Shown here: in pieces, positions 8,516-33,006 of the stretch
How positions within the stretch are numbered: position 1 is the stretch's first letter
Layout: each line of letters begins with the position of its first letter
IMG/VR virus record: IMGVR_UViG_3300035034_002581
DNA: 64,000 bases
Reading direction: 5' to 3' (one strand)
Origin: a virus
Position numbers and translations under genes: made by a program
The notes under the pieces: generated by a model
Seen by the model: the letters and a program-made list of their open reading frames with translations, nothing else
Told to the model about the DNA's origin: nothing
Database searches by the model: none

Positions 8516-8839
8516 CTACAACGTCTGTCGAATTAATTCAATTGCGTTTTCTTCTGGCATATTTCTAATTAGGCTTTTGTACAACTGATAGTCTCTAAAT
8601 ACTAAATCCTCCAAAACATCTGCAGGATCAGCATCTCTTGGGATAGCGTCTTGGCTCCGATCTCTACGCGTACTCTGAATGTACTTTTCAAGATCAGTCT
8701 TTAGGCTTAGTGGTGTTTCACCAAATGCACTTGTGTCGCTTCTGCTGAAATTACTACTAAAGTACATTGGATCATCGTCGATCATCTCCTGTAGTACTTC
8801 TTTAATTGATTCTCTGAGAAGCTTTCTTGTCTTGTTCAT
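8516..8839 (-). CDS. shared-leader family member 4
   Basis: The N-terminus is MNKTRKLLRESIKEVLQEMIDD. Confidence 0.4.
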   Translation of the reverse strand: MNKTRKLLRESIKEVLQEMIDDDPMYFSSNFSRSDTSAFGETPLSLKTDLEKYIQSTRRDRSQDAIPRDADPADVLEDLVFRDYQLYKSLIRNMPEENAIELIRQTL

Positions 8840-9585
8840 TTGATTGCCTGCCCGATTCGATCTGCTTTCTTAAATCTTTCTTCGATTACTACCCAGTCAA
8901 GCTCTTTCATCATTGAGTAGATGTAAGATCTTCTGTCATCTAGGTAATCTCTAAAGTATGCATGTTCCCAAACATCGATAACTACGACCGGGTAACAACC
9001 AACTGGAATTGATGTATCGTGAGATTCTACAAAGAAGTTAATGTATCTCTGCAAAAATGTACTATAAGCACACACAGCCCAACCAGAAGCACCAGACATT
9101 GCATTAGCTACAAGATCGTATTGCCAGTTGTCAAAATTACCAAAGTCTCGTTCTAGCCTCATGTAAGATAGTGAGTCCATTGTAACTTCACTGTGCACAT
9201 CACTAATGTTTGCAAAGTACAGTTCGTGCAAGTAGACTGCGTTCATGTAGAAGATCTCATTTTGCTTTAAAGATCTATAGGTTCTGAAGTCGCTCTTTCT
9301 ATCTACAGTGTCGAGCTCTGCACTTATTCTTGTAAGTTGCTCTGTGTAATTCTCATACAGCTTCTTGTGTGCATGCTTAGCTTTTTTTGAAAGAAGCTCT
9401 GTAGGCAAGTTATAAGTTTTTGCAAGTGCCACATACGATTCGTTTAGAGTACTAGATGAAGACTCTCGCTTTATGCCAAGATCTTTCTGTATTCCTTCTA
9501 ATACTTTTCGCTGTGTTTCTTTTAGATCAGTCAAGTTTATATTCCTTTTCGAGTTCTTTTCTCGAGACCGTAAATTCTTCACCAT
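8836..9585 (-). CDS. Fe/Mn superoxide dismutase-like protein with N-terminal extension
   Basis: The C-terminal motif VVVIDVWEHAYFRDY matches the Fe/Mn-SOD signature D-x-W-E-H-[STA]-[FY]-[FY]. An upstream His-rich helix (KHAHKKLYENY, LHELYF) is consistent with the metal ligands. A ~60-aa N-terminal extension is not typical of SOD. Confidence 0.65.
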   Translation of the reverse strand: MVKNLRSREKNSKRNINLTDLKETQRKVLEGIQKDLGIKRESSSSTLNESYVALAKTYNLPTELLSKKAKHAHKKLYENYTEQLTRISAELDTVDRKSDFRTYRSLKQNEIFYMNAVYLHELYFANISDVHSEVTMDSLSYMRLERDFGNFDNWQYDLVANAMSGASGWAVCAYSTFLQRYINFFVESHDTSIPVGCYPVVVIDVWEHAYFRDYLDDRRSYIYSMMKELDWVVIEERFKKADRIGQAIK

Positions 9586-10795: not shown

Positions 10796-11200
10796 TCACT
10801 TGATTTGTATAATTTCGATTCCCGCATCTTTTAGTAACTCAATGCCGGACGTATCGACGTATTCTTTCTTGAAGTATACTATGTCTATATTAGCATTGAT
10901 AATTCTCTTTGCACACATTATGCAGGGACTAAGAGTAACATACATCTTCTTCTTCTTCGGGTTGTTGAAGTCGCACTTGATAAGTGCATTCTCTTCTGCA
11001 TGAATAAACCCAGACTTTCCCGTCTCAAAAGAGGCACGTTTGTTACTTCCTCCCTTTTCGTCGCCGTTGTATCCCACAGATAAAACTTGAGTATTATCAA
11101 GTGTTACAATTATAGCGCCCACTTTTGTTTTCTGATCAGATGATCTTCTGCTAATTTGCTCAGCAACTTTCATCCAAACTTCATTCCATTCTGGTCTCAT
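10796..11200 (-). CDS. dCMP deaminase (cytidine/deoxycytidylate deaminase zinc-binding fold)
   Basis: HAEENAL ... SPCIMCAKRI gives the H-[AC]-E ... P-C-x-x-C zinc motifs. The size (134 aa) fits. Confidence 0.75.
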   Translation of the reverse strand: MRPEWNEVWMKVAEQISRRSSDQKTKVGAIIVTLDNTQVLSVGYNGDEKGGSNKRASFETGKSGFIHAEENALIKCDFNNPKKKKMYVTLSPCIMCAKRIINANIDIVYFKKEYVDTSGIELLKDAGIEIIQIK

Positions 11201-12503: not shown

Positions 12504-13079
12504 TTACCACATGTCTCTTTCATTTGTGTAGCTGTGGCAGTTCCAGCAACGTGGTTCATATAGGTCGGCGCCGCCCACTTGTATCTCTTCTCCTTCTTCT
12601 ACCTTCCTCTGAGTATAAAATGCGTCTGCCTGACACTCTACACAAACAGCTGGACACTTTTCAATTCGTGTTGCCCAGGGCATTATCTTTGCAACTTCAT
12701 CAAATGCTTTACAAGACGCTGACATCTCCAAGGAAGACACAATTATTGTCTTACCAAGTCTAAAAAGACGTATTAGTGTTTCTGCTACATCATCTATCAT
12801 AAATGCTTCGTCAACAGCAATTACATCATAATCAACGTCAGAATCTATCAAGAATCTATAAATATCCTTAGCAGTTTCGACTGTGACTACTTCGACGTCG
12901 TCAAGCGTTAGACCTATGTGCGTCTTTATGTTTGTTTTTGAATAGCGATCATCCATGATAGGCTTAAAAGCTACTGTTCGCTTTTTTTGATACTTGTATC
13001 TATCGATCTGAGCTAAAAGTCGAGTAGTTTTACCACTAAACATCGGACCTGTGAAGAGGATAAATTCTGGATTACGCAT
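12504..13079 (-). CDS. tdk: thymidine kinase
   Basis: FTGPMFSGKTTRLL is the P-loop typical of TK1-type thymidine kinases. A C-terminal CxxC...CxxC zinc ribbon is present (CAVCVEC...CWNCH). Confidence 0.8.
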   Translation of the reverse strand: MRNPEFILFTGPMFSGKTTRLLAQIDRYKYQKKRTVAFKPIMDDRYSKTNIKTHIGLTLDDVEVVTVETAKDIYRFLIDSDVDYDVIAVDEAFMIDDVAETLIRLFRLGKTIIVSSLEMSASCKAFDEVAKIMPWATRIEKCPAVCVECQADAFYTQRKVEEGEEIQVGGADLYEPRCWNCHSYTNERDMW

Positions 13080-14112
13080 AGTCTTCCCACCACTTAATAG
13101 TAAGTTCTAGCCCTTCCCAGAAGTGGACTTTAACTTTATAATCCAATTCCTCTTGTGCTCTTGAGATGTCTGCGAGGGTATGCCTAACATCTCCGATTCT
13201 TCTAGGTGCATGGTTGATTTTTACTTTATCACCGTGCTGATTCTTAAGTGCTTCAAGTATTTGATTGTTGCTTACACTCTTTCCGCAAGCAATATTGTAA
13301 CACCTGCCAGTCTTAAGATCTTTATTACTAGAGCTTAATAATAGTTGTGCAGCCTGAATATTAGCATGCACGACATTGTCGATATAACACATATCTCGTG
13401 TCTGTTCTCCATCTCCATCACTCCTTAGTTCAAGCCCGTGTTTAATTGCGTGACACCAGGCTGATACTGCAGTCGCATATGCACTTCCGGCCAATTGACC
13501 AGGCCCGAAAACGTTAAAATACCTTAGGCCTATGCTTTTGAGCTCGTATAAGTCTGCATACAACTTACTATAATCTTCAAGATGATACTTTTGCATCGCA
13601 TATGGAGATTTAGGTAGAGAGTGGCCCTTTTGGCTTTCGACTGTAGGTAGAATTGAAGCACCACCATACACAGCGCTAGAAGATGCCCAAACAACAGGCG
13701 TCTTGCTATCTGCCGCTGCTTTAAAGAGTAAGAGTGATCGGTGTAGATTGATCATATTGCTCTTTACAGGGCTTTCTACAGAATATGATACGCTTGGAAT
13801 GGCTGCTTGATGAAAAATGACGTCGTATCTAGACTTTTGAATTCTTCTAAGTACACTTTTATCTGCAAAATCATTTTGAAAAAATGGCACAACAGCTTCG
13901 TTCTTTGGGATACCTTCTGCAGCACCTGTTCGATTAGTAAGACTATCAAGCCAGTCATCTGATCCTACATAAATAGTCTTTAAAGGGCTTAACAACTCGT
14001 AAGAGCCTGATGAAAGATCATCGACAACCTCTACATCCCATCCCTCTTTGACAAGTTCTTTTACAAGGCTAGATCCGATAAATCCAGCACCTCCTGTTAC
14101 TAAACAACGCAT
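13072..14112 (-). CDS. NAD-dependent nucleotide-sugar epimerase/dehydratase (extended SDR)
   Basis: MRCLVTGGAGFIGSSLV is a Rossmann GxxGxxG motif. YAMQK is the catalytic YxxxK. The length is 346 aa. Confidence 0.65.
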   Translation of the reverse strand: MRCLVTGGAGFIGSSLVKELVKEGWDVEVVDDLSSGSYELLSPLKTIYVGSDDWLDSLTNRTGAAEGIPKNEAVVPFFQNDFADKSVLRRIQKSRYDVIFHQAAIPSVSYSVESPVKSNMINLHRSLLLFKAAADSKTPVVWASSSAVYGGASILPTVESQKGHSLPKSPYAMQKYHLEDYSKLYADLYELKSIGLRYFNVFGPGQLAGSAYATAVSAWCHAIKHGLELRSDGDGEQTRDMCYIDNVVHANIQAAQLLLSSSNKDLKTGRCYNIACGKSVSNNQILEALKNQHGDKVKINHAPRRIGDVRHTLADISRAQEELDYKVKVHFWEGLELTIKWWEDYA

Positions 14113-14135: not shown

Positions 14136-15059
14136 TTACCGCACCAGATGTGCAGAGTTTAAGCTAAAACTAAACTTAGCTTCTACAGGAGAACCTAGAT
14201 TGTATTTCTCATGAACTACACTTGCGAGGTAATAAATGAACTCAAGATCCTTGCGAAATGTCTTTGCAACGTTTGAAGATCGCAAGTTCACGTTTACATC
14301 CATAATGTTGTCTCTAAACAGAATATGAATGAGTGAAATGCATGTGTCGTCAGTGTATATAAAACGTCGAGATGTAGAAGTTTGTTTCTCGTTATACTCA
14401 TTCTTACCATTAAGCTCATTTGTCATCTTTGTAGTCATCTTTTCAAGTATACCCTTGAAGTAGTCCCCTTCTACATCGTCATCAAGAATTTCAGGATCAG
14501 CTTCTGGAAAATCAAGATCTTCAAAGAAGGTGAAACTCAATGGAACTTCGCAGTCTTTTGCTGATGTGCTTGGGATGTTTGACACGTATCTTAGTACTTC
14601 ACTTGCAATGTCATCTAAGTCACACTCTTCTTTTGTCTTGTTCCAAGCTACAATGTCATGTGTTGTTTCTTCGACACTTTTCGTATCATTTTCGACGTGA
14701 ATGACATTAGGTAGATTTGATATCCACTCTTGATCTTCGAACAAAGTGTAGAGTCGAGAAAGCGATTCTTCTGTTTGGAAATCATCGCCGCGTTTTTGGA
14801 ATCTAGCCTTGACTGTCTCCCAGGGCGGAAGGACAAAAACGACACGATTATTCAAACATGATAGCTCTGTCCAAAAATTACGTGCATGTTGAGTTAAGTT
14901 CCTACTATACATTTGACCGTAAACTAACATCGATAGCGTTGAACGATCTTGAATGTTCCATCGGAACGATGACTCTCTGTGTATCTGACTGTACAAAGAA
15001 GATTTACCAGAACAATCTGGTCCTTCTAAGATTAATTGACTTGTATGAAATCTGATCAT
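14136..15059 (-). CDS. thymidylate-kinase-like dNMP kinase with ~110-aa C-terminal extension
   Basis: ILEGPDCSGKSSL is the P-loop (compare Tmk IEGLDGAGKST). The DRSTLSMLVYGQ segment matches Tmk DRYxxSxxAYQ. Confidence 0.5.
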   Translation of the reverse strand: MIRFHTSQLILEGPDCSGKSSLYSQIHRESSFRWNIQDRSTLSMLVYGQMYSRNLTQHARNFWTELSCLNNRVVFVLPPWETVKARFQKRGDDFQTEESLSRLYTLFEDQEWISNLPNVIHVENDTKSVEETTHDIVAWNKTKEECDLDDIASEVLRYVSNIPSTSAKDCEVPLSFTFFEDLDFPEADPEILDDDVEGDYFKGILEKMTTKMTNELNGKNEYNEKQTSTSRRFIYTDDTCISLIHILFRDNIMDVNVNLRSSNVAKTFRKDLEFIYYLASVVHEKYNLGSPVEAKFSFSLNSAHLVR

Positions 15060-15106: not shown

Positions 15107-15484
15107 TCAATCGTCACTTTTCATTTCTGTTATAACAGATTCATCAAGAAATGCGTTAGCGAGTGGAAAACCTTTATTTTCAATTTTGCAACGATACTGA
15201 AAATGAACGTTGCCGTCGACCCGCTGATCTTGAATTTCCTCTATCTTGAGAGAAACTTGTGTTGTAACTGTGTCTCCAATCTGGTATTTAAACAAAGATT
15301 TTACGTACATTTCATGAATATTCTTGTGAGATACATTGTGAGTTTCTCCTGCTAGACCGATCAAATCGTAGAATACTCCCTTGCGAGTTATTCTGATTTC
15401 GTCTACTGAGAAGACATGCTTTGTATCTCTGTCTATAAACTTAACGTAGTCACCTATCTTAAACATTTTACTCCTTTGAATCAA
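15107..15484 (-). CDS. small KOW/SH3-like protein, tandem two-repeat member of the GD(L/Y)V family
   Basis: 125 aa with two internal copies (FKIGDYVKFI... and YQIGDTVTTQ...). Confidence 0.35.
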   Translation of the reverse strand: MIQRSKMFKIGDYVKFIDRDTKHVFSVDEIRITRKGVFYDLIGLAGETHNVSHKNIHEMYVKSLFKYQIGDTVTTQVSLKIEEIQDQRVDGNVHFQYRCKIENKGFPLANAFLDESVITEMKSDD

Positions 15485-15683
15485 TTCTGCGAACTATTCT
15501 TAAAATAAGCTCTGCATTTTGTAGAAAAAAGTCCAGGACACGTCCATCTGTAAGCAAACATCTGTACTTTTGATGTTTGTTACCTTTATTCACAGATACC
15601 ACCAGCATAAGGTCATTGCTGACGATGTGTTTCTGATGATCTGGATGTCCCAGAGATACGAGGTCGCCTTTCTTGTACATCAT
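15468..15683 (-). CDS. small KOW/SH3-like protein (GDLV family)
   Basis: MMYKKGDLVSLGHPDHQKHIVSNDLMLVVSV. Confidence 0.35.
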   Translation of the reverse strand: MMYKKGDLVSLGHPDHQKHIVSNDLMLVVSVNKGNKHQKYRCLLTDGRVLDFFLQNAELILRIVRRIDSKE

Positions 15684-15886
15684 TGTGCTTCTTCCTTTAC
15701 GCGACTTAAGAGAGTCACTTTGTACAAATATCTCTTGTATACACTTCCGTCAATCAAGATATCGTAGTAGATCATTCCAGCTTCGTCCTTGTATCGGGCG
15801 GTAATAAGACCGATGACGACTTGGTTCGATGTCACAAAGTAGAACCTTACGATATCGTTTGCTTGAAGGTCAACAGACAATTTCAT
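15680..15886 (-). CDS. small KOW/SH3-like protein (GDLV family)
   Basis: ...NDIVRFYFVTSNQVVIGLITARY. It is a paralog of its neighbours. Confidence 0.3.
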   Translation of the reverse strand: MKLSVDLQANDIVRFYFVTSNQVVIGLITARYKDEAGMIYYDILIDGSVYKRYLYKVTLLSRVKEEAQ

Positions 15887-16707
15887 GACGTTTGGAGTTC
15901 ACTAAATTTGATAAAGTTGATGCCTCTGTCGTTAAATGCCAAGATTTCTTCAACACGCTTAGCTTTCTTCTGTCCATTTGAATAGAGTTTACCAAGTGTA
16001 ACAAAATCAAATCCATGCGCCTTCAGATTTCTTTCGTTAGCGTCTGTCTTGAGACAAGAGATAATGACAGGGTTTTTTCTCTTTCCAAGTGCTTTCACTA
16101 GCTTAATATCATCTGTGATGGTCCACCCAGCTGGAGTATAGCTTGTAAACGTAGATGAGTACGGTGCATCTGCATAAATAACAGCATCTTCGTCTTCAAG
16201 ATCAGGTAGCGAATGTTCCCAGGAAAGGCATGTGGCTGCTTTTATTTTATCAGATGGGGTAATTAACAGCTTATCAAATGGAAACCTCCTAGGGCCTCCA
16301 TAAGGCACGTTACAGCCATTCTTGCTGGCCCGCCATAACCCATTAAATCCTGCGTAAAGAATAGCTAAGAAGGCAACTGGATCTTGCTCGCCAGTGCTCT
16401 TAAAGTTATTGCGAACCTCGTAGAATTTAGCCCGTGGATCAGGATCACCTTGAATGCTATCGAATAGATCACGAACTTCAGTCAAGTAATCGTTCTTACG
16501 AAGTGCAAGCTCTTTGTACATGTTAATCAAAGGCAAACAGGTATCGTTTAAGTATGCCTCCTTTGCATGCGTTAGCGAGACAGATGCACTTCCTGCAAAA
16601 GGCTCGTAGCACACGTCCATACTTCTGAAAACTGGTAGAAGCCACTTTTTAGATCCTGTCCATTTAATTGTCATTCTTTTTCTCACTTGGATTGTACAAC
16701 TGTTCAT
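15883..16707 (-). CDS. DNA N6-adenine methyltransferase (Dam-like, alpha group)
   Basis: Motif I is EPFAGSASVS (compare Dam EPFVGAGSV). Motif IV is IYADAPYSS, a DAPY variant of DPPY. Confidence 0.7.
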   Translation of the reverse strand: MNSCTIQVRKRMTIKWTGSKKWLLPVFRSMDVCYEPFAGSASVSLTHAKEAYLNDTCLPLINMYKELALRKNDYLTEVRDLFDSIQGDPDPRAKFYEVRNNFKSTGEQDPVAFLAILYAGFNGLWRASKNGCNVPYGGPRRFPFDKLLITPSDKIKAATCLSWEHSLPDLEDEDAVIYADAPYSSTFTSYTPAGWTITDDIKLVKALGKRKNPVIISCLKTDANERNLKAHGFDFVTLGKLYSNGQKKAKRVEEILAFNDRGINFIKFSELQTS

Positions 16708-16888
16708 TCAGTAACTGCTGTTGAATTATCTCAGTTTTGAGGTGTTCTCGATAGATCTTCTCATTGTCCATCTGTATTCTTCGATACTTTTGGTACAACA
16801 TTGTAGCAAATCCTGGAATTGAAAACACTAAAATTGCTGAGCTGACAATGCCAGCTACAACGATCAGACCTATCAAGAAATTAGCCAT
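16664..16888 (-). CDS. small membrane protein
   Basis: 74 aa. The N-terminal TM segment is FLIGLIVVAGIVSSAILVF. It overlaps the methyltransferase start. Confidence 0.3.
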   Translation of the reverse strand: MANFLIGLIVVAGIVSSAILVFSIPGFATMLYQKYRRIQMDNEKIYREHLKTEIIQQQLLNEQLYNPSEKKNDN

Positions 16889-16989
16889 CAGTCACCCTTT
16901 GTCACAATGAAAGGCGCCGGCGCCCATAATTGTCTCCTTACTAGACAAGACAATTGTACCACAATTTGATGGTTATTTACAATCGAAGA

Positions 16990-18003
16990 CTACTTTAAAA
17001 TGTGTGTGTGTGATTCTCTAAGTGAATTTCCAGAGACTCTTAATAACACACATTTAGCTTGAAACTCTTCGATACTAATACATCCTGAGTAGCTTAGTGC
17101 ACTTTTAACTCTGGATTCTACTTCTCCCAGGATAGTTTCTACGCTGTCAGTTTTAAATGGGATTCTTGTTGTAATACCTTCAAGAGACGCAGCTTTACCT
17201 CTCCAATCAATTTGCGCATCTTTACTGGCCATACCTCGATAAACCTTCATGAGCTGGCCTTTATACATGTAAGCCTCACCAGGAGTAGATGCTGTCCCAG
17301 CTAACATACTACCCAGCATAACAGCATCAGCACCTGCTGCAAGGGCCTTAGAGATGTCTCCTGCGTTTCTTAGGCCGCCGTCGGCAATCAAAGCTGCCGG
17401 TCTTGTCGAGGTTGCACACTCAAGAATTGAAGACAATGTTGGCATTCCGTGTCCTGTCTGGAGTCGAGTACTACAAATACTTCCACCGCCGATTCCGACT
17501 CGAATACTGTTTGCGCCCCAGTCTGACAAGTCGTCGAAACCTTTCTTCGTGGCTACATTGCCTGCCATTATGTGGATGCCCAATCCGTACTGCTTGCGTA
17601 GTTCATAGAGCGCTTTTTTCATCATTTCTGTGTGTCCATGGGCTACATCAATACAAAACTTGTTAGCACCCTCCTGGATATGTGCATCGACGCGCTCGAT
17701 ATAGTCACCTGATACGCCGATCGCTATGACTTTGTTGTGTGCTTTCTTTGCTATTTCGACCTGATCTTCGATAGAGTTATATCTGTGAATGACGCCGATT
17801 CCGCCGGACCTTGTCATATCATTACACATAACATCTTCAGTTACAGTGTCCATCGGACTTGAAATAATAGGCAGTGAAAGATCAAGACCGCCACAGAATG
17901 AATATAAGCTAATCAAGCTCCTAGATGGGATCTTAGAGTATTGCGGTCGAATGAGAATGTCGTCGAAACAGAGCAACTCCGGTTTTTGTAGGTCAAGTCT
18001 CAT
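16990..18003 (-). CDS. guaC: GMP reductase-like (IMPDH/GuaC family, no CBS domain)
   Basis: 337 aa. FDDILIRPQYS matches the GuaC N-terminus FKDVLIRPKRS. GIGGGSICSTR matches the catalytic-Cys loop GIGPGS(V/I)C(T/I)T. Confidence 0.6.
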   Translation of the reverse strand: MRLDLQKPELLCFDDILIRPQYSKIPSRSLISLYSFCGGLDLSLPIISSPMDTVTEDVMCNDMTRSGGIGVIHRYNSIEDQVEIAKKAHNKVIAIGVSGDYIERVDAHIQEGANKFCIDVAHGHTEMMKKALYELRKQYGLGIHIMAGNVATKKGFDDLSDWGANSIRVGIGGGSICSTRLQTGHGMPTLSSILECATSTRPAALIADGGLRNAGDISKALAAGADAVMLGSMLAGTASTPGEAYMYKGQLMKVYRGMASKDAQIDWRGKAASLEGITTRIPFKTDSVETILGEVESRVKSALSYSGCISIEEFQAKCVLLRVSGNSLRESHTHILK

Positions 18004-19110
18004 TTAAAAAGTACCTCGTTGTGTCCATGACGGACTGTCTAGAAACTCTATGTGATCAATAGGGAACGCTGCATTTTTTCGAATAGCACTTGTGATTGAC
18101 TGCAACATGGCTTCTTCTGAATCATATCGGCGCAACACACCGTTATAAAAGAATGGCCACTCTTCTTTGTGCCCCATAGTGGCGTTTAAATAGCTCAATT
18201 TTACTGCTGTCGAAAATACGTCAAGCTTATTGATGTAGATTTTGTTTGATCCAGTAATATTGATTGCTTTGATAAGTTTGTCAACATTGAGAAAGTTTGT
18301 ATCTCGTGCCCTTCCAGTTGTTACGCCAATCTCTTTACCTGCTACGGCGAGATCTTTTTTAAAACGAGCGTGATTCTCCGGCTCTGGATCGAAACTAGGA
18401 TCGATTCCGACTCTTGTGTCATACATCTTAGCAACACCGTAGACATCACGTATTGAATAGTGTGAGAAGCCTAAAGATAGTGCACCAGCGGGTGTTGTAT
18501 TTGAAGATGTAACATATGGATAGTTTCCGTAGTCTACATCAAGCCAACATCCTTGTGCTCCTTCACATAACACCTTCTTTCCGAGTACTTCATCCCAAAT
18601 CATGTGTGCAGGGAGGTAGTCTTTTGCAAGTTTTCCTGTTCGTCCATATTTGTCCCTATACGCTGGTGCAATACCGTTACCTGTAGTACCCAATCTTTCC
18701 TTGAACTCTCCAGAATCTTCTCTAATGTGATCATTCGTAACGATATGAGCACGAGGAGATACTTTGACAAGTGAACCGTTATGTCCTGCCTTCTCTAATA
18801 GGGAGATCTCTCGCATCAGTTTCTCAACATTAACAACACAACCAGGACCAATCACACTCTTGATGCCGAAGAGTACACCGCAAGGGACAATATGTGTTTT
18901 GTATACCTTTTCTTCTCCATCTTTTCCGGGCACATGAATTGTGTGCCCTGCATTTGAACCTCCGCTCCATCTCGCGACCATGTCATAGTCACCTGTTGAT
19001 GCTAGTCCTGCTGCTATCTTTCCTTTTCCTTCATCGCCCCAAGCTAAACCTGTAACGATGTCAACGATCAAACCCATGTCGTTTTGTCCCTTTGAATTAT
19101 TTCTAAACAA
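18004..19110 (-). CDS. purA: adenylosuccinate synthetase homolog (short, archaeal-type; PurA or PurZ-like)
   Basis: WGDEGKGKI is the P-loop and SGGSNAGHT holds the catalytic His, as in PurA. It is only 368 aa, against ~430 aa for bacterial PurA. The coding sequence directly abuts the guaC-like gene. Confidence 0.7.
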   Translation of the reverse strand: MFRNNSKGQNDMGLIVDIVTGLAWGDEGKGKIAAGLASTGDYDMVARWSGGSNAGHTIHVPGKDGEEKVYKTHIVPCGVLFGIKSVIGPGCVVNVEKLMREISLLEKAGHNGSLVKVSPRAHIVTNDHIREDSGEFKERLGTTGNGIAPAYRDKYGRTGKLAKDYLPAHMIWDEVLGKKVLCEGAQGCWLDVDYGNYPYVTSSNTTPAGALSLGFSHYSIRDVYGVAKMYDTRVGIDPSFDPEPENHARFKKDLAVAGKEIGVTTGRARDTNFLNVDKLIKAINITGSNKIYINKLDVFSTAVKLSYLNATMGHKEEWPFFYNGVLRRYDSEEAMLQSITSAIRKNAAFPIDHIEFLDSPSWTQRGTF

Positions 19111-19292
19111 TCTGAATCACGATATAGTAAACCAAGTGGTGTGTATATCTTGTAGCACAATCCTTCGGAATAAGGTGCTGGAATTTGGGCATCAGTTATG
19201 ATGCCTACTGTTTTGTTCTTGAGCGAACCAAAATGTCCCGTTGCTTTCCAGACACGAATTTCTACCAGGTCACCACGACCTACATTACTCAT
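19068..19292 (-). CDS. small KOW-like protein (GDLV family)
   Basis: GDLVEIRVWKATGHFGSLKNKTVGIITD fits the KOW pattern Gd.V.v...G.f.G..G.V. Confidence 0.35.
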   Translation of the reverse strand: MSNVGRGDLVEIRVWKATGHFGSLKNKTVGIITDAQIPAPYSEGLCYKIYTPLGLLYRDSDCLEIIQRDKTTWV

Positions 19293-19522
19293 ACTACTAC
19301 CTGCTTCATTGATTGTATTAGCTTAGCATTTATGTCTGTTCGCTTTATAATACAACCATCAGGTGCTAACATTGTATAGACAACACAAGATGATCTAGTG
19401 TTAAATGAGATGACTAGACCGACTGTGTCAACTTTAAAGTGTTCACTGTAACCTTTAGCATAGACAGTTATCTTAACTAAGTCACCGGAGTTAAGGCAGT
19501 TTCGTTTCATGCAATCCCTCAA
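19289..19522 (-). CDS. small KOW-like protein (GDLV family)
   Basis: SGDLVKITVYAKGYSEHFKVDTVGLV. Confidence 0.35.
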   Translation of the reverse strand: MRDCMKRNCLNSGDLVKITVYAKGYSEHFKVDTVGLVISFNTRSSCVVYTMLAPDGCIIKRTDINAKLIQSMKQVVV

Positions 19523-19739
19523 CTAATTCATAGTCCTGAAAAAATCTGGTGTGTATCGTGAGTGTTTCTGAATCAATGACTTTTGTTGTTGTGATGTATG
19601 TAATTTCTGAGCATCTCACATTCATCACGATTCCGAGGCTTCGTGTGGCCCTATGTCGGACTAGATCACCTCGCATGTATCTATACATCAGTCTAGATCC
19701 AGTGGACGAATCTTCCATGCTGTGGTCGATGGACCCCAC
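19491..19739 (-). CDS. small KOW-like protein (GDLV family)
   Basis: MRGDLVRHRATRSLGIVMNV. The start is probably an internal Met. Confidence 0.3.
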   Translation of the reverse strand: MGSIDHSMEDSSTGSRLMYRYMRGDLVRHRATRSLGIVMNVRCSEITYITTTKVIDSETLTIHTRFFQDYELVEGLHETKLP

Positions 19740-22700
19740 TTGTCGTCGCCCTTAGCTTGACACATCCAAACACTGAACCTTGGGATCTCTTCTTTGAGAT
19801 TACCCCAAACCTTGAGCCAAACAAGATTGTTGTCGCCATCTTGTGCTCTGATTCTGTGATACGTCTTGCCGTTCTTGGTCTTTTTAACTTGAACTTCTCG
19901 ACATAGGAACCATGCAACTGCTTCGACGCCACCTGGGATTTCTGTCAACGGAGGAATATCCTTCTCTTCAAGCCTTTCCAAAAACCCTTCTGGGAACAAC
20001 TGTTCATTACTAATGGCACTTCTAAGGTCAGCGTTGAATGTGATCTTCTCGGTTCGAGTCCAATCTTCATCGAACTCGACTGACTTGATTAGATCTGGGA
20101 GAATGTCTGGGACTGCCTTACCGTTCTTGATATCACGCTTAATACCCGCAGCAGACTTACCCTTCTTTCCTTTTCGCAATACGTTCCAATTGTCCATCAA
20201 GAGCGCATGTAGTTGTCGGTGATTTTCAAAAGTACCGTCTTTGAATTCAGCAAGTGAGTTGAACGCTTCGATTTTGCAGAGTGAATCAAATGATCCCTTG
20301 TTCATCTTAGAGTGATACCACTTGCCTTGGTCATCAAACAATAGATCTTCAAGACTCTTGAATGGACGAGATTCTAGGATCTCAGCAGCTGCAGTCTTAC
20401 CAACTCTCTTGATAGAAGAAAGCGGAGGTACGAAGGCATTGATTTCGTATGAGTACTCCCATTCAAATCCAGAGTGATTAATGTCGATCGGAGCAATTTC
20501 ATAGCCGAGACGCTTAAGTTCAACAATTGCCTTTGATAGACCTGTCGGACTGTTGTTCTCAGACTGCAAGATTGTTGCAATCCACTGCTCTGGATGATAA
20601 GTGAAGAGCCACGCGCCGAAGTAAGAGTCAATTGCATATGCAATGGCGTGAGACTTGTTAAATCCATAGACGCTGAAGAATTCGATCTTTTTCCAGAGTT
20701 CTTCTGAGATATGCTCTGGAATGTCATGGAGTTTCTTGGCGCCCTTGACAAACTGGTCTCTAGCAGCAGCACGCTCATCGCCCTTCTTACCCATTGTATC
20801 AAGTGACTTCTTAACAAGAGTCTTACGAAGTTTGTCAGATTCCGCAGGTGAGAATCCAGCTAGCTCTTGTGCAAGTAGCATGAACTGCTCTTGGAAGGAG
20901 ATATATCCGAGGGTCGGACTTAGGATTTTCTCAATAATTGGGTGATCATAAGTAATTGCAACACCTTCTAGCAGCTGTTTTTTTGTTGCAACATAGTCGG
21001 TGTGCACGTTAGCCTGGAGTGGACCGGGTCGGTAGATTGCAGTAATTGCGCCTAGCTCGGTTGCATCTGTTGGCTTGACCTGTCGACAGAATTCACGAGC
21101 ACCTTCAGCAGTAAATTGGAAGAGGCCTGGCGCAAAGTCTTGCTGATGATATGCTGTCTTGAAGACATGCAGATCATCGGGATCGTTTGTTCTGCAATTT
21201 AAGTGCTTGTCAAAGTAGGCTTTTACTTCATCAAACGTCGGCTTGGGATTACCTTCCTTGATTAAGATTCGACGAATACAGTTTCTAACGTCTTCCATGA
21301 GCGTCAACCCAAGGAAGTCAAACTTAATGAATCCGTTGTCTTCAAGGTTACGGAAGTTCATACCTTCTGTCCAAGGTGTTTGTAGTTCACCGCGAACAGA
21401 GATGATCGGCATCGTTCTTTCAAGCTGCTCAGGTGGAGCGATAATGACACCACCAGCGTGACGACCCAGACTCTTGTTCTGCATGAAAAGAGCAGCAATG
21501 TGTTGCTTAACCTCTGGGTACTCATCCATGAATGCACGGTACTTCTTAGAATACTTCATACAATCTGCGTGCTTGAGAACGAACACCGACTTCTCAGTGT
21601 TGGAGTCCTTAGCTTGAGGCATGACCTCTTCCTGTAGGCCACGAGTAAGATCAAAGACCTCAGAAGCAGGAATATCGTAGAATGAAGAAATGTCCTTTAG
21701 TAATGACTTGAGTTTCAAAGTATTGAAGTTAGACACAGGAATGACTGCGTCGTTGCCGTAAAGTTCACGTGCAGCGTTAATCAAGACGTCGCGGTCGCCA
21801 ACATCAGAGTCGATGTCAGGCCAAGAAGTACGGTGTCGACCAAGGAATCGCTCCCAAAGTAAACCGTATTTCAGTGGATCCACCTGTGTAACACCGAGAA
21901 GATAGTTGACAAGTGAACCAGCACCTGATCCTCGACCACATCCAAAGAGCGTTGATTTAGCAGCAAGGTTAAAGACCTGATACATGACCAAGAAATAGTT
22001 TTCAAACCCAAGGTGCTTGATGTCAGACAACTCATAGTGAGCGCGCTTGATATACTCTGCGTTTTTAGCAAAACCTTCCTTGATCAACCCTTCCTTAACG
22101 AGTTTTGCAAGCTGATTGAAGGCTGACTCTTCTTTGGTAGAAAAGTTAGGTAGCTTTGCTTCAGTGTCAATCCATGTGTCAGAGCACATATCCCAGCAAA
22201 TGTCGTGTGTTCGCTCAATTGAGTCACGAACAATTGCTTCGGTGCCTTCATAGAATGGGTACTTGTCTTTATGTGCAAGGTACTCATCCCACATCTGTTG
22301 TGCATTTTTAGGATAGAGTTCACACTTTAGATCTTCTTTCTTCGGAAGACCCTCGTCATCTTTTCGCTTCCAACCAAGGCGTCTATAGAGTTCTCGTGCT
22401 TGCCACAATTCAGGTGCTGGATAGTGAGAGTCAGCAGTGGCCACAAGTGGAATACTAGTCTTCTCAGCAAGCTTGATTAGTGCAGCATTTGTTAGATGCT
22501 GGGCTGGGAGGCTGTTGAACTGCATCTCGAGAAAGAAGTTTTCTTGACCAACAGCGTCGACAAATCGGTCTGTCATGTTTTCGAGGCGATTCATGACATT
22601 GACAGCAGCTTGGCCAGTTAGAAGATCAGGGTGAAGCTCATCGAACTTCTTATCAGGAAACTCCTTGTAGATCAAACCAGAAGCTGCGCCACCGACGCAT

Positions 22701-23254
22701 GCTGTACTTACGATAAGACCTTCGCTATGTTCTTTGAGCATGTCATAGTCAATACGAGGGAAGCGATAGAATCCATGCTTGAAAGACTTCTTGACGAGCC
22801 TGTAAATATTGTGAAGACCTTCTTGATTCTTGGCCAAGACAACTAGGTGATAGTATCGCTGCCAATCTGGCTTTCCGGACGATCTTGTCTCTTCCTCAGA
22901 CTCAATGACGTGTCCTTCCTCTTCCTCATTAGAAGTTTTCGCCTTTGCTGCAGCCTTTTGTGCTTTGTGAGCTTCATAATCTAATCGCCACTGTGTCAGA
23001 GAGGGGACAAAGTAAAACTCTACGCCATACAACTGACGGAACTTCTGACCTTTCTTTCTTCTCTTTTCATACTCTTTCCTTGCGTGAGCATGAGAGTTTG
23101 CATTTCCGTGATTTGTAATCGACCAAGCGTCCATTTCGTTGTTAAGAACGAATTCGACGTGATCTGATGGATATCCTAAACCATCGTATGTAGAGAATCC
23201 ATCGTGAGCGTGTAGACCGACGAATCGGTTAGGTGGTCGAATTAACTTTGACAT
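19688..23254 (-). CDS. dnaE: DNA polymerase III alpha subunit (DnaE-type replicative polymerase with N-terminal PHP domain)
   Basis: ~1190 aa. The N-terminal PHP motif RFVGLHAHDGFSTYDG matches E. coli RFVHLRVHSDYS. Downstream Pol III alpha core motifs follow. The start was moved to the second in-frame ATG (MSKLIRPP) because it is preceded by GCTAGGAGTATAATG, a perfect SD. Confidence 0.85.
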   Translation of the reverse strand: MSKLIRPPNRFVGLHAHDGFSTYDGLGYPSDHVEFVLNNEMDAWSITNHGNANSHAHARKEYEKRRKKGQKFRQLYGVEFYFVPSLTQWRLDYEAHKAQKAAAKAKTSNEEEEGHVIESEEETRSSGKPDWQRYYHLVVLAKNQEGLHNIYRLVKKSFKHGFYRFPRIDYDMLKEHSEGLIVSTACVGGAASGLIYKEFPDKKFDELHPDLLTGQAAVNVMNRLENMTDRFVDAVGQENFFLEMQFNSLPAQHLTNAALIKLAEKTSIPLVATADSHYPAPELWQARELYRRLGWKRKDDEGLPKKEDLKCELYPKNAQQMWDEYLAHKDKYPFYEGTEAIVRDSIERTHDICWDMCSDTWIDTEAKLPNFSTKEESAFNQLAKLVKEGLIKEGFAKNAEYIKRAHYELSDIKHLGFENYFLVMYQVFNLAAKSTLFGCGRGSGAGSLVNYLLGVTQVDPLKYGLLWERFLGRHRTSWPDIDSDVGDRDVLINAARELYGNDAVIPVSNFNTLKLKSLLKDISSFYDIPASEVFDLTRGLQEEVMPQAKDSNTEKSVFVLKHADCMKYSKKYRAFMDEYPEVKQHIAALFMQNKSLGRHAGGVIIAPPEQLERTMPIISVRGELQTPWTEGMNFRNLEDNGFIKFDFLGLTLMEDVRNCIRRILIKEGNPKPTFDEVKAYFDKHLNCRTNDPDDLHVFKTAYHQQDFAPGLFQFTAEGAREFCRQVKPTDATELGAITAIYRPGPLQANVHTDYVATKKQLLEGVAITYDHPIIEKILSPTLGYISFQEQFMLLAQELAGFSPAESDKLRKTLVKKSLDTMGKKGDERAAARDQFVKGAKKLHDIPEHISEELWKKIEFFSVYGFNKSHAIAYAIDSYFGAWLFTYHPEQWIATILQSENNSPTGLSKAIVELKRLGYEIAPIDINHSGFEWEYSYEINAFVPPLSSIKRVGKTAAAEILESRPFKSLEDLLFDDQGKWYHSKMNKGSFDSLCKIEAFNSLAEFKDGTFENHRQLHALLMDNWNVLRKGKKGKSAAGIKRDIKNGKAVPDILPDLIKSVEFDEDWTRTEKITFNADLRSAISNEQLFPEGFLERLEEKDIPPLTEIPGGVEAVAWFLCREVQVKKTKNGKTYHRIRAQDGDNNLVWLKVWGNLKEEIPRFSVWMCQAKGDDKWGPSTTAWKIRPLDLD
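23217..23250. repeat. 34-bp direct repeat copy 1 (covers dnaE codons 2-13)
   Basis: ccgacgaatcggttaggtggtcgaattaactttg is identical to the copy at 23799..23832. Confidence 0.8.
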
Positions 23255-23798
23255 TATACTCCTAGCTGTCATTACTCTAGCAGCTTTTAAGGACGGCCGA
23301 CTAGCTTATTTTTGTTCTTGTATATTGTACCATCAACTAGTACACAATTACACATTTTGTTTCCTCTTTGTAATCGAAAAGTATATACAAAGAAGAATGT
23401 TATTGAAGGCAGGCAGAACCTACGGAGAGGGTTACGACCCCTCTACCACTTTAGATCAACTCCCGTGGACGGCTATCCTCCGTCTTTGTATATCGGGCCA
23501 GCATTTAATGGTCTGCACGTTTAAAGTTGTCGCCCCCTTCTTCAGCTTTCATCATCTTACGTTATTAGATTACTTGCTTAGTGAAGCTGCCTGCTATCCT
23601 GATTGGGTGTTTCTCCTCAATAACAAAAATGATAATTTACTCTACTCATGTGACAGATTTGCTTTAGCTTTCTCAGCTCTCACTGCATCATTGAGAACTG
23701 CCAGCCTTCCTTCGCGACTTTTGTATGAATAAATTGCATCGTCTAACATCTTCTGTTCGACATGCGTTTTAAGGCCCTTACCTTCATTTGTTACCCAG

Positions 23799-25065: not shown

Positions 25066-26148
25066 TCAATAAAACTTGGTCAAGTCGATATTGAGTTCAT
25101 CAGCAGCTTCTAGATACTTAAGCGGATTGTAGTGTGATCCGCCACAAATTTTAGAGAGTATTGTCTCTACAACATCTTCAATACCTGATTCAAGATTAAC
25201 CGTTGGCGACCATCCAGAGGTCTTTCTGAAGCTTTTTGATGACAACCTATGGTTTCCAAGGTAGTCAGTTTTTGGATTCCATCTGACTATTTCTGACGGT
25301 ACTTTAAGCTGATCAATTATTTTGATAAATGGCGGCCAGTCTTTAAATGATACTGTGTGTGATCTCATACTGGCTGCTAATACTTGATCAACTGTGTCAA
25401 TAATCTCACCAGTAACTCTAGGATCTTCAGCGGCGACAATGAAATCTTGACCCCACAGATTTTGTTCAGCTGCCATTAACACAGCAGTACAATAATCCTT
25501 GACATGAAGATAGTCTTTGTACTTGGTTGGATCGAGAAACATATCGATTTCTTCTCTTCCTATCATTGCTCCGTAAATAGACTTGGCAATTAGAGAGTTC
25601 ATGTCGCCTTCGCCGCCATATGCAAAGAGAGGCCTGATGATGTTTGTTTTGCCTTTCGATTCTCTTACGATCATGTCACCTGTTTGTTTTAGCTGACCGT
25701 AGTAAGTTGTAGGCTTTACCGTGCTTTTCTCTGTGATGAGTGTGTGTTGGTAATTTGGAGTGTCATAGATTACTGTCGTTCCCATGTAGCTTACTAAGAT
25801 TCCTTCTGCTTCGCATGCTCTAACAATGTTGTAAGTTCCGTTCACGTTTGTAAGAGTTGCCTCAGCAGCAGACAGTGCAACGACGTCTGTACCTACAACT
25901 GCAGCATTGTGTATAACAAGATCAACCTCGAAATGTGTAAGTGCTTTTCTCCATTCCACGATTGTATTCTTGTGTACGCAAGGCTCCATAAACATAGAGG
26001 GCTGATGTGGTTCGCCTTTGACCCGCCAGATAAGATGTTTAGCAGCTTCTTCAGTACACAAAGAAACGAACTCATGGCCTCGTTTTTTGATTTCTTTAAT
26101 TAGTCCTTGAGCGATGAAACCTTTTTCACCAGTGATTGCAATTTTCAT
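25066..26148 (-). CDS. NAD(P)-dependent epimerase/dehydratase (SDR family)
   Basis: MKIAITGEKGFIAQGL is a Rossmann motif. YGQLK is the YxxxK motif. The length is 360 aa. Confidence 0.6.
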   Translation of the reverse strand: MKIAITGEKGFIAQGLIKEIKKRGHEFVSLCTEEAAKHLIWRVKGEPHQPSMFMEPCVHKNTIVEWRKALTHFEVDLVIHNAAVVGTDVVALSAAEATLTNVNGTYNIVRACEAEGILVSYMGTTVIYDTPNYQHTLITEKSTVKPTTYYGQLKQTGDMIVRESKGKTNIIRPLFAYGGEGDMNSLIAKSIYGAMIGREEIDMFLDPTKYKDYLHVKDYCTAVLMAAEQNLWGQDFIVAAEDPRVTGEIIDTVDQVLAASMRSHTVSFKDWPPFIKIIDQLKVPSEIVRWNPKTDYLGNHRLSSKSFRKTSGWSPTVNLESGIEDVVETILSKICGGSHYNPLKYLEAADELNIDLTKFY

Positions 26149-26862: not shown

Positions 26863-27846
26863 TCATTCTACCCACCCAACGTCAGTTTTCCATGCAGAAT
26901 ATTCTTCTCGAATGTCTTTCACTTCCTTGTCATAACCTTCCATTAGTTGGTCGAATCTAAAGTTCTCGGGCTTACCAAGTTCTGGGTCTGTTCCGTTAAC
27001 TTCATTTCTGTAGCAGTTGTAGATGAAGTCTTCTGGGTGCCAGTCAAACTTATCGGAGTCGGCATCGGGCCAGTACAGATTCGTAGCCTTTCCAGTACGA
27101 GCTGTTGCAATGTAGTGGCGAGAAGCTGCATGCGGATTGATGCATGATGTAATCTCTGGGAACAACTTAGCGACAGCAATAAACATCTGGTATGCCATCA
27201 CATTGTCTGTTGTAGGCTGAATCTGCTTATCAAAACGCTGACGAAGGAAGTTGAGCATATCCTTTAGGTTGCATCGGGCGTAGTAGTGTGTCTCAATAGC
27301 TCTAGGAAGGATTGTCCTTGCATCCATGATTGAAATCTTACGAGAATCAATCATATCACAGTACAACTCCTTTGCATCTTCAACGTGCTTCTTCCAACGC
27401 TCGTAGAGTTCTGGACTGTTCTGGACAGGACCTGGAACTAGCGCATTGCTATGTGACTGCCAACGATCTCCAGTACACTGAGCGCTGAATGAGAACGTTC
27501 TGTGTCTGATGAGATGGGTGACTGTCTGTAGATCGATGCCTTCAATGCGGAAGGTAAAGTCCAAAGTCTCCATAACAGTCGGAAGTGCTTTGTAATTGAG
27601 AGCGAGTTCGAGTGCTTCATGTCCCTTCCATGCTGGGACATCGTCCGGGTTGTGCATTCCTGGTGCGTCTTCCCATGTAGCATTGATAAACTGATAGACC
27701 ATTCGCCTGACACGCTCAGGATCAGGATAGTCGAGCAAAACTACATTTAAAGAGTCAAGATCGTTCTTGAACTCAGTTGTTGGCTTTTCGTCAAAGCGAA
27801 TCGCCATGGGAAATTCTACGGGCTTTAATTTTTTGTCTTGTGGCAT
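26863..27846 (-). CDS. divergent ThyX-like (flavin-dependent thymidylate synthase family) paralog
   Basis: FTFRIEGIDLQTVTHLIRHRTFSFSAQCTGDRW matches the ThyX core (FxFxI...sRa...Ql.RHRxxSfsqxSxRY). A Cys replaces the signature Ser and TGDRW replaces SQRY. It is 327 aa against 229 aa for the canonical ThyX at 32317. Confidence 0.5.
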   Translation of the reverse strand: MPQDKKLKPVEFPMAIRFDEKPTTEFKNDLDSLNVVLLDYPDPERVRRMVYQFINATWEDAPGMHNPDDVPAWKGHEALELALNYKALPTVMETLDFTFRIEGIDLQTVTHLIRHRTFSFSAQCTGDRWQSHSNALVPGPVQNSPELYERWKKHVEDAKELYCDMIDSRKISIMDARTILPRAIETHYYARCNLKDMLNFLRQRFDKQIQPTTDNVMAYQMFIAVAKLFPEITSCINPHAASRHYIATARTGKATNLYWPDADSDKFDWHPEDFIYNCYRNEVNGTDPELGKPENFRFDQLMEGYDKEVKDIREEYSAWKTDVGWVE

Positions 27847-32316: not shown

Positions 32317-33006
32317 TTATGTCCTATTTGCAAATGCCGCGACGGATACTGGCCACAATGTCAATGCAATTGTGTTTAGTGCCTCAGCAACTTTCTGAAT
32401 TTCCCACTGGGCACCTTCATGGGTTCTCAATCTAATAAAATGCATCAAGTTATGCAAATTTACTGTACCATAATATTCTGTATAAAGATTTTGAGGTAAT
32501 ACTCCTCTCGCTTGTTCGCGACAGACTCCTGCGTCAAGCAATTTTTCAAAAAGTGCAAGACTGTGTATATGATGCACGAGGACTGCTTCTGACGCTTTTG
32601 TTTTTATGTTATCGAGTGAAACAATGTCAGGGTCGATCAATTCATTTTCGTTCGATGCCTGTCTGTTAGATTTATGCTGTGTTCTAAACTCTTGTGGTTC
32701 ATAGAACCTCATGTTAATGTCAGTGTATCTTCTACTAATCTCGTTGTATGCCCATGTCCTATGACGATGATGCTGTGATCTAACGTAAAGTGGCACTGTA
32801 AATCTAAATGTTGCTGTGCAGTGCTCGAATGGTGACGTATGATTGTGCTTGGCAAGATAGTTGATAAGCTTTTCATCTTTACTGTCAACTTCTCCTTTTT
32901 GTCCACCAAAAGAAACTCGAGCAGCGTTAACAACGCTTAAGTCAGTGCCCATGTGACTAATAAGTTCTACTTCACCAATTCCGTCTTCGTATAGTTCAAT
33001 CTTCAT
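32317..33006 (-). CDS. thyX: flavin-dependent thymidylate synthase ThyX
   Basis: Canonical RHRTWAYNEISRRY gives RHR-x7-S. The N-terminus has VVNAARVSFG. The length is 229 aa. Confidence 0.85.
   Translation of the reverse strand: MKIELYEDGIGEVELISHMGTDLSVVNAARVSFGGQKGEVDSKDEKLINYLAKHNHTSPFEHCTATFRFTVPLYVRSQHHRHRTWAYNEISRRYTDINMRFYEPQEFRTQHKSNRQASNENELIDPDIVSLDNIKTKASEAVLVHHIHSLALFEKLLDAGVCREQARGVLPQNLYTEYYGTVNLHNLMHFIRLRTHEGAQWEIQKVAEALNTIALTLWPVSVAAFANRT

Follow-up and report, generated by a model that had tools for sequence, protein, structure and literature searches.

Adjacent phage genes for a compact adenylosuccinate synthetase and a predicted GMP reductase suggest a guanylate-to-adenylate shunt

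Within a 64,000-nucleotide viral sequence (IMG/VR record IMGVR_UViG_3300035034_002581; "the window" hereafter means this whole stretch of DNA), we identified two abutting minus-strand genes, one encoding a shortened homolog of adenylosuccinate synthetase (PurA) and the other a barrel enzyme of the inosine monophosphate (IMP) dehydrogenase (IMPDH)/guanosine monophosphate (GMP) reductase (GMPR) family. We consider it probable that the two products move guanylate into the adenylate pool by way of GMP, IMP and adenylosuccinate, with host PurB completing the route to adenosine monophosphate (AMP). An initial annotation made from the sequence alone had proposed such a guanylate-to-adenylate shunt, and it stands as the best-supported reading of the locus, although its reductase step is a prediction for a protein that misses all NCBIfam cut-offs for GMPR and IMPDH and is more IMPDH-like overall. 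The locus comprises the following elements:

18004..19077, minus strand: mini adenylosuccinate synthetase (PurA homolog), 357 aa; from PF00709, residue conservation and identity to P0001
16990..18003, minus strand: CBS-less IMPDH/GMPR-family (beta/alpha)8-barrel enzyme, 337 aa, predicted GMP reductase; from PF00478, residues and missing IMPDH hallmarks
18001..18006, minus strand: gene junction TAA/ATG with zero intergenic bases; direct sequence read

Both genes are present in the open reading frame (ORF) list, the GuaC-like gene as an intact 337-aa ORF (16990-18003, minus strand) and purA as a 368-aa ORF counted from a TTG (18004-19110, minus strand). The ATG at 19077, which gives 357 aa, is the likely purA start and the TTG at 19110 is less favoured, since the 357-aa product is identical to a database protein (P0001) that was called independently in public assemblies. 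This ATG and the stop of the small ORF before it share a 10-nt overlap. The sequence at the junction, read on the coding strand, is ...ACT TTT TAA ATG AGA...; the stop codon of purA (TAA, 18006-18004) is directly followed by the start codon of the guaC-like gene (ATG, 18003-18001), and 10 nt 5' of this second ATG, within the 3' end of purA, there is a GAGG. The initial annotation had correctly placed the two ORFs and their motifs (GIGGGSICSTR, FDDILIRPQYS, GDEGKGK and NAGHT) and correctly described the absence of a gap; it named GuaC first and gave no strand, whereas both genes lie on the minus strand and purA is transcribed first, with the guaC-like gene second. In transcriptional order, a DNA polymerase III (Pol III) alpha gene (19688-23272) and three small ORFs precede the pair, and a further small ORF and a Dam methylase come after it; no promoter- or terminator-like sites between or around the pair rose above shuffle expectation. 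At third codon positions the two genes share the G+C content of the rest of the phage, with 0.34 and 0.40 against a mean of 0.37 (standard deviation 0.04). The two genes probably form a co-transcribed and translationally coupled pair.

The family assignments made initially hold for both proteins, with matches far beyond chance (PF00709, E=1e-71; PF00478, E=1.4e-87). PF00709 (Adenylsucc_synt) spans the whole PurA homolog at 242 bits against a cut-off of 27, and the best solved relatives are bacterial PurA proteins (E~1e-48), with Pyrococcus PurA (1e-28) and structures of the phage enzyme PurZ (1e-18 and 1e-8) further away. The NCBIfam PurA equivalog cut-offs are all missed (NF002223, 232.9 of 402 bits; TIGR00184, 218.1 of 395.6 bits; archaeal NF003295, 160 of 368 bits), a shortfall that we attribute to deletions and divergence. 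Residues were mapped by alignment with E. coli PurA and the characterised PurZ of phages phiVC8 and S-2L, and their conservation was assessed across 30 family members. The catalytic residues D13, H41, K16 and Q224 of the E. coli enzyme correspond to D15, H45, K18 and Q175 of the phage protein and are invariant in 30/30 members. The IMP/aspartate pocket is likewise kept, with T300/T301, R303, R305, T128/T129 and T239 represented by T253, T254, R256, R258, T131, T132 and T190, as are the partner-subunit residue Arg143 (R146), equivalents of Glu14 and Asn38, and the Lys331-x-Asp333 motif of GTP specificity (INKLDVF, whose K284 and D286 do not vary within the family). Arg303 is the residue that contacts the 2'-OH of the ribose. 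All mapped residues are invariant or present in 29/30 members. From these residues we conclude that the protein is a predicted PurA-type enzyme, using IMP, aspartate and GTP, and not a Z-base (2-aminoadenine) enzyme.

Although it belongs to the same Pfam family as bacterial PurA (E. coli b4177; H. pylori/C. jejuni structures 6ZXQ, 7PVO and 9F17) and is 35% identical to E. coli PurA, the phage protein is ~75 residues shorter than the latter, lacking a ~50-aa segment (about residues 149-198) and two shorter C-terminal segments. Its alignment to bacterial PurA splits into two stretches around the missing ~50 residues, and ~85 residues carried by bacterial PurA are absent. Against the short PurA of Pyrococcus horikoshii (339 aa; 2D7U/5K7X), in contrast, it gives a single colinear alignment over residues 18-300, and the archaeal-type model NF003295 also matches in one stretch; the compact architecture is thus that of a solved cellular PurA. 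The two nevertheless differ, in that sequence similarity to archaeal PurA is weaker (E 1e-28) than to bacterial PurA and the phage clade is separate and virus-dominated.

We then consider the second protein, whose catalytic loop, GIGGGSICSTR, carries Cys177. In an alignment with E. coli GuaB, E. coli GuaC, B. anthracis IMPDH and the Legionella structure 3R2G, Cys177, Thr179 and Glu275 correspond to the GMPR triad Cys186/Thr188/Glu289 and are invariant in the family. This triad is required for E. coli GMPR activity (PMC2525682), but it is common to IMPDH too and is therefore necessary without being discriminating. The ribose-binding Asp208 and Tyr255-Arg-Gly-Met (YRGM) are also kept. Three hallmarks of IMPDH are missing, which argues against a dehydrogenase. 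The CBS/Bateman subdomain is absent, leaving ~120 residues fewer than in E. coli GuaB. The Arg418-Tyr419 dyad, which lies in the flap of IMPDH and brings the general base into the active site (PMC2525682), is also absent, with the ...SDRYFQ... of the E. coli and B. anthracis enzymes aligning to a deletion and the flap being ~10 residues shorter than that of IMPDH. Finally, G-M-A-S replaces G-M-G-S at Gly415 (human IMPDH2 numbering), a glycine common to all annotated IMPDHs (PMC4701174); the substituting Ala259 is invariant in 28 family members. The flap that remains, DWRGKAASLEG, has a D-W-R-G conserved in the phage family and does not contain the classical GuaC motif E-Y-R-A-(A/S)-E-G; it fits neither IMPDH (RY) nor classical GuaC. 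Structure-database matches are led by 3R2G (5e-74), followed by IMPDH catalytic domains, T. brucei GMPR (1.7e-60) and human GMPR1/GMPR2 (~1e-44). In an AlphaFold (AF2) model the protein has a predicted local distance difference test score of 83 overall, with a confident barrel, and of 41-59 in the Cys loop and flap, both of which are disordered, and the top Foldseek matches of this model are IMPDH catalytic domains and 3R2G, a search that does not separate the two activities.

We compared the protein with two kinds of characterised GMP reductase. With classical GuaC (E. coli b0104; human GMPR2, 2C6Q) it has in common a CBS-less barrel of ~340 aa, the triad, the lack of an Arg-Tyr dyad and a non-glycine residue after G-M; it differs in its low identity (31%), its lack of the GuaC flap motif, its IMPDH-type C-terminus (ESHTH) and its failure to reach the GMPR cut-offs. 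With the IMPDH-like GMP reductases of T. brucei (6JL8) and M. smegmatis (GuaB1, 7OY9) it has in common the K+-site residues and G-M-A, whereas those enzymes have CBS domains and long flaps and the phage protein has neither. In BLAST the T. brucei enzyme is closer to IMPDH than to GMPR; it depends on monovalent cations, shows no IMPDH activity and has Ala at the Gly415 position (PMC4701174), and M. smegmatis GuaB1 is an IMPDH-like, K+-dependent GMP reductase in which Met387-Ala388 contacts GMP (PMC9790621); our residue comparison with both rests on the residues quoted in these two papers. Given these precedents, similarity to IMPDH and a K+ site are no argument against a reductase.

The closest solved structure, 3R2G from Legionella pneumophila (361 aa, 43% identity), is likewise CBS-less and has GGGSxCSTR, GMAS and a short flap, which reads EWKTAEG as opposed to DWRGKAASLEG in the phage protein. 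It was deposited by structural genomics as an "IMP dehydrogenase", a name that we do not count as evidence of function, having found no biochemical study of the protein. Family members annotated as GMP reductase or IMPDH/GMPR occur in Xanthomonas phage XacN1, Stenotrophomonas phage RAS14, Thermus phages phiYS40/TMA, Microcystis phage Mel-JY01 and a "deep ecotype" pelagimyophage (PMC7029224). They are at most 35% identical to the window protein, and none is among the PurA matches listed, no PurA check having been aimed at them.

Alignment-based scans of IMG/VR confirmed at least 595 GuaC-like and at least 572 PurA-like loci (a single-sequence scan with the PurA homolog matched nothing), and both proteins fall in large, mostly metagenomic clades at ~50-64% identity to the window proteins. 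We surveyed the neighbourhoods of the best 80 loci per query (160 anchored loci, with flanks of up to 10 kb) and observed mini-PurA together with an IMPDH/GMPR-family gene in 37 of the 160, namely 8/80 guaC-anchored and 29/80 purA-anchored loci, mostly at a distance of 0.6-6 kb. Restricting the count to purA-anchored loci whose upstream flank exceeds 7 kb, we find the pair in 28 of 52. For environmental viruses, such numbers contradict the initial statement that phage-borne purA, especially when paired with guaC, is rare.

The partner of mini-PurA takes three forms. Type 1, the lineage of the window itself, consists of eight GuaC-anchored loci in which a same-strand mini-PurA precedes the GuaC-like gene by 0.85-5.9 kb and itself usually follows Pol III alpha; among the Type 1 loci surveyed the genes are stop-to-start only in the window, those of its relatives being separated by small ORFs. 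Type 2 consists of 25 PurA-anchored loci with a different, ~368-aa IMPDH-family protein (30% identity), which is located 0.6-3.2 kb upstream on the same strand in 24 of the 25 and 8.4 kb away on the opposite strand in locus L154. This protein has the Cys loop GPGSMCLTQ, in which the loop Arg is replaced by Gln, together with G-M-A-S and a flap without Arg. Type 3 consists of four loci with classical GuaC (L162, L141, L144 and L164); the GuaC proteins of L162 and L141 exceed the NF003470 cut-off of 397 bits (536.7 and 499.7 bits, respectively) and those of L144 and L164 fall just below it (387.3), with the canonical GuaC at 4.8 kb from mini-PurA in L162 and at 0.13 kb in L141. Neither in the window nor in any of the 164 viral loci did we find a CBS-containing protein, a GMGSxxAM motif or GuaA. 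Viral partners of mini-PurA that curated models can classify are GMP reductases, and the two subtypes that they cannot classify share reductase-like signatures; this recurrence of the same neighbourhood with a non-orthologous partner is our strongest argument for a reductase.

Two arrangements seen during this survey deserve separate mention. Across the Type 2 loci L105-L161 (for example L123, 6860-10951), a deoxycytidine monophosphate (dCMP) deaminase gene often lies beside or between the IMPDH-like gene and mini-PurA, forming a recurrent three-gene cluster; it occurs within a few kb in 18 of 25 tabulated loci (24 Type 2 loci and L162), which have 25-35% G+C. L141 (4930-8667 of an 11.5-kb contig, IMG/VR GVMAG-M-3300021961-22, viral by its giant-virus bin) carries GuaC and PurB in tandem, divergent from mini-PurA across a 128-bp gap, and so contains a complete GMP-to-AMP gene set with the single PurB found among the viral loci. 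A scan of cellular genome contigs with a narrow pattern returned 13 loci. Three contigs with close GuaC-like matches (L168, L169 and L171), binned in Legionellales and Chitinophagaceae metagenome-assembled genomes, have guaC-like and phage Pol III alpha genes arranged as in the window, L168 and L169 also with ClpP, and the presence of Pol III alpha indicates that they are probably mis-binned phage DNA.

A number of observations weigh against the proposed shunt. The 337-aa protein falls far under the cut-offs of the NCBIfam models for IMPDH, GuaB1, GuaB3 and both GMPR types, and its score with the IMPDH model (TIGR01302, 247 bits against a cut-off of 481.5) is higher than with the GMPR models (NF003470, 187.8/397; NF003966, 174.7/344; TIGR01305, 173.8/492 bits). 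It is 38-41% identical to IMPDH cores as opposed to 31% for E. coli GuaC, and it keeps the IMPDH-type C-terminal ESHTH (the ESHxH K+-site motif). The Arg of its D-W-R-G flap could conceivably act as a base, and since IMPDH also has a slower water-activation route through Thr321/Glu431 that works without Arg418 (PMC2525682), weak IMPDH activity could persist in the phage protein. On the genomic side, PurA is missing from the surrounding 10 kb in 25 of the 30 Type 1 reductase relatives whose upstream flank exceeds 7 kb; part of the co-occurrence is lineage synteny and does not represent independent events; and a bacterial contig of the candidate phyla radiation (CPR), L176, has a full-length GuaB beside PurA. 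The reductase activity of this clade is itself a prediction from sequence. Finally, the initial annotation had reasoned from an AT-rich phage. With 41.5% G+C (58.5% A+T) the window is only moderately AT-rich, and the argument from AT-richness, like that from a guanylate surplus in the host, is no more than suggestive.

Many of these points would suit a deregulated, CBS-less IMPDH that converts IMP to xanthosine monophosphate (XMP), in which case the phage would possess the first committed enzyme of both IMP branches, boosting the branch point and leaving host GuaA and PurB to finish. The higher TIGR01302 score and identity to IMPDH cores, the retained ESHTH and YRGM, the Foldseek matches, the Thr/Glu route and the CPR contig all agree with this role, and loss of the CBS subdomain would remove feedback by GTP/ppGpp. 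We nevertheless regard it as unlikely, given that the Arg-Tyr dyad is absent and the flap shortened, that Gly415 is replaced by Ala as in the proven GMP reductases of T. brucei and M. smegmatis (PMC4701174, PMC9790621), and that, as these same enzymes demonstrate, a protein may resemble IMPDH and have a K+ site without being an IMPDH. GuaA, moreover, occurs in none of the viral loci, and the classifiable viral partner of mini-PurA is GuaC. We also considered that the two genes may be independent neighbours, that the 337-aa protein may have a different substrate or a non-catalytic role, or that the pair may refill adenylate after host defences deplete or deaminate ATP. The spacing of 0.85-5.9 kb in relatives, the many reductase relatives without a nearby PurA and a D-W-R-G flap motif that matches no characterised enzyme would all be compatible with such roles. 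Three reductase subtypes co-localise with mini-PurA, however, the genes are stop-to-start in this phage, the residues for binding purine monophosphates and for catalysis are all intact, and no feature of the window points to a specific function in evading defences, making this group of explanations quite unlikely in our view.

The PurA homolog could also have belonged to the Z-base pathway, acting as a PurZ/PurZ0 that turns dGMP into the precursor of the 2-aminoadenine nucleotide dZMP, with its neighbour adjusting the G pool. Its 357 aa are short, as in PurZ and archaeal PurA, its PHROG family is labelled "2-aminooxy adenylosuccinate synthetase", the PurZ model NF038379 gives a weak match, and the window elsewhere encodes an HD-domain protein and a weakly dUTPase_2-like protein. 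That match, at 105.7 bits, falls well short of the cut-off of 300, and PurZ structures are matched far more weakly (1e-18, 1e-8) than PurA (1e-48). Closer inspection of individual residues is more telling. Asp13, 99% conserved in PurA, is replaced by Ser in 100% of 147 phage PurZ/PurZ0 (PMC12884076), and an S14D mutation abolishes PurZ selectivity (bioRxiv 10.1101/2025.10.22.683976); the phage protein retains the Asp (GDEGKGK), whereas phiVC8 and S-2L PurZ have GSTGKG. It also retains Arg303 with the TTGR motif, whose equivalent residue in PurZ makes no ribose contact (PMC8342488), and the K331/D333 GTP motif, a KxD that the phiVC8 and S-2L enzymes have lost. The known PurZ/PurZ0 proteins (phiVC8 6FM1, S-2L 7ODX, Gordonia phage Archimedes 7VF6) share superfamily, phage origin and similar length with the phage PurA, but they have Ser for Asp13, have lost Arg303 and KxD and are accompanied by datZ/mazZ or dutZ/dmtZ, none of which traits the phage PurA displays; in tblastn searches of the window with DatZ and MazZ of S-2L and phiVC8 the best E-values were 0.59 or worse, dutZ and dmtZ not being searched. 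The residue tests, together with the model score and the lack of datZ/mazZ in the window, lead us to reject a PurZ identity and a Z genome, which we consider highly improbable.

Of the guanylate-to-adenylate shunt that we favour, the presence and adjacency of the genes, the conservation of their residues and the recurrent co-localisation in viruses are observed directly; the substrates, the reductase direction, the coupling and the physiological benefit we infer as follows. The 337-aa enzyme would act as an NADPH-dependent GMP reductase (GMP + NADPH -> IMP + NH3), in which Cys177 would form the E-XMP* thioimidate and the Thr179/Glu275 pair would protonate the leaving ammonia. Mini-PurA would then convert IMP, aspartate and GTP to adenylosuccinate, GDP and phosphate, and host PurB, needed because no purB was found in the 64-kb window, would cleave adenylosuccinate to AMP and fumarate, with host kinases and the ribonucleotide reductase (RNR) of the phage supplying dATP. 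The net effect would be to feed guanylate, which could come for instance from the breakdown of host RNA or DNA, into the adenylate pool of a phage with 58.5% A+T. A parallel C-to-T route through dCMP deaminase and ThyX is encoded nearby, and jointly the two would convert G and C pools into A and T. Both enzymes lack segments of their cellular counterparts (the CBS/Bateman subdomain and ~85 PurA residues, respectively) and may thus escape host allosteric control.

The window represents part of a large, marine-type tailed phage (a myophage), and the gene pair sits inside its replication and nucleotide-metabolism block. Structural genes encode a tail sheath and a T4-type baseplate protein. Replication genes encode a DnaB helicase, UvsX, a gp32-like single-stranded DNA-binding protein, an exonuclease and a DnaE-type polymerase, and the nucleotide genes comprise a class I RNR, two ThyX homologs, a thymidine kinase, a thymidylate-kinase-like protein and dCMP deaminase. 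ClpP, Fpg, a DHH phosphoesterase and Dam methylase are encoded as well. Neither purB nor GuaA was found in the 64-kb window. Megablast of 16000-20000 against GenBank phages returned no match, indicating that there is no close cultured relative. Two further features of this region are:

10796..11200, minus strand: dCMP deaminase; from PF00383 and a ComEB/dCMP deaminase match (4.4e-19), in the same co-directional nucleotide-metabolism block
19068..19739, minus strand: three overlapping small ORFs (74, 77 and 82 aa), co-directional, between the Pol III alpha gene and purA, the last overlapping the purA start

In the pyrimidine branch, the dCMP deaminase (C to U/T) would mirror the proposed conversion of G to A, a parallel that we offer as context and not as evidence of coupling. 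The three small ORFs belong to a set of six (68-125 aa) that flank the gene pair on the minus strand at 19068-19739 and 15107-15886 and are weakly similar to one another, with an N-terminal G-D-L/I/Y-V, a V/I-G-L/I-V stretch and then Y...D-G in common; several overlap by a few codons, and by sequence they look like a family of small paralogs.

Other genes of the window were recorded alongside. Upstream of the small ORFs, 19688-23272 (minus) encodes a full DnaE-type Pol III alpha of 1194 aa with a PHP domain. A 408-aa protein (43830-45056, minus) with weak similarity to family-A polymerase overlaps and lies directly upstream of the 210-aa HD-domain protein (43235-43867), which by tblastn is not a DatZ homolog. 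The two ThyX (Thy1) homologs, at 26863-27846 and 32317-33006 on the minus strand, comprise a canonical protein of 229 aa (E=2.9e-49) and a divergent one of 327 aa, in which only the C-terminal three quarters of the domain are matched (E=1.7e-23, under the TIGR02170 cut-off). Within the nucleotide/replication block there are also two NAD-dependent sugar epimerase/dehydratase homologs (13072-14112 and 25066-26148, minus), one of them directly between the thymidine kinase and the thymidylate-kinase-like protein, a placement which may hint at a nucleotide-sugar or DNA-modification function. The N-terminal half of a 307-aa P-loop protein (14136-15059, minus) is weakly thymidylate-kinase-like (PHROG 761, E=4.7e-12), and its ~170-aa C-terminal extension weakly matches phrog_35203 only. 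The similarity of a 249-aa protein (8836-9585, minus) to Fe/Mn superoxide dismutase is limited to the C-terminal domain of the latter (E=5.4e-19), and two adjacent long tail-sheath-like proteins of 996 and 898 aa (58146-61136 and 61173-63869, minus) resemble sheath proteins only in their C-terminal third.

The conversion of guanylate to adenylate through GMP reductase, PurA and PurB is textbook biochemistry, and phage purA has been listed as an auxiliary gene in virome studies. Our literature search returned no description of PurZ combined with GMP reductase or of a phage purA-guaC pairing, and none of a recurrent mini-PurA with three reductase forms, of a frequent dCMP deaminase partner or of the biochemistry of the two virus-dominated reductase subtypes. 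The chemistry itself is ordinary and the surprise for a specialist would be modest. More tentatively, and as a possibility that we would not yet call likely, marine and aquatic phages may have repeatedly assembled a dedicated "GC-to-AT" module for converting nucleotide pools. At least three forms of the reductase that are not orthologous would have been recruited to such a module, including two putative reductases that are virus-specific and CBS-less, and the module would help AT-rich viruses (25-42% G+C) build DNA from the differently composed nucleotides of their hosts. In a more speculative variant, the pair would restore adenylate once host defences have depleted or deaminated ATP.

For annotation, these findings mean that a phage PurA homolog is not automatically PurZ, with the Asp13/Ser test separating the two, and that the name IMPDH should be withheld from a phage protein of this family that lacks CBS, the RY dyad and GMGS. 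If the proposed shunt is correct, two large virus-dominated clades that are now mis- or under-annotated, as ~335-aa CBS-less "IMP dehydrogenase" and ~335-aa "adenylosuccinate synthase", would acquire a function. The virus itself would carry two sequential purine-interconversion enzymes that shift the host nucleotide pool toward its own base composition, complementing the dCMP deaminase/thymidylate synthase route.

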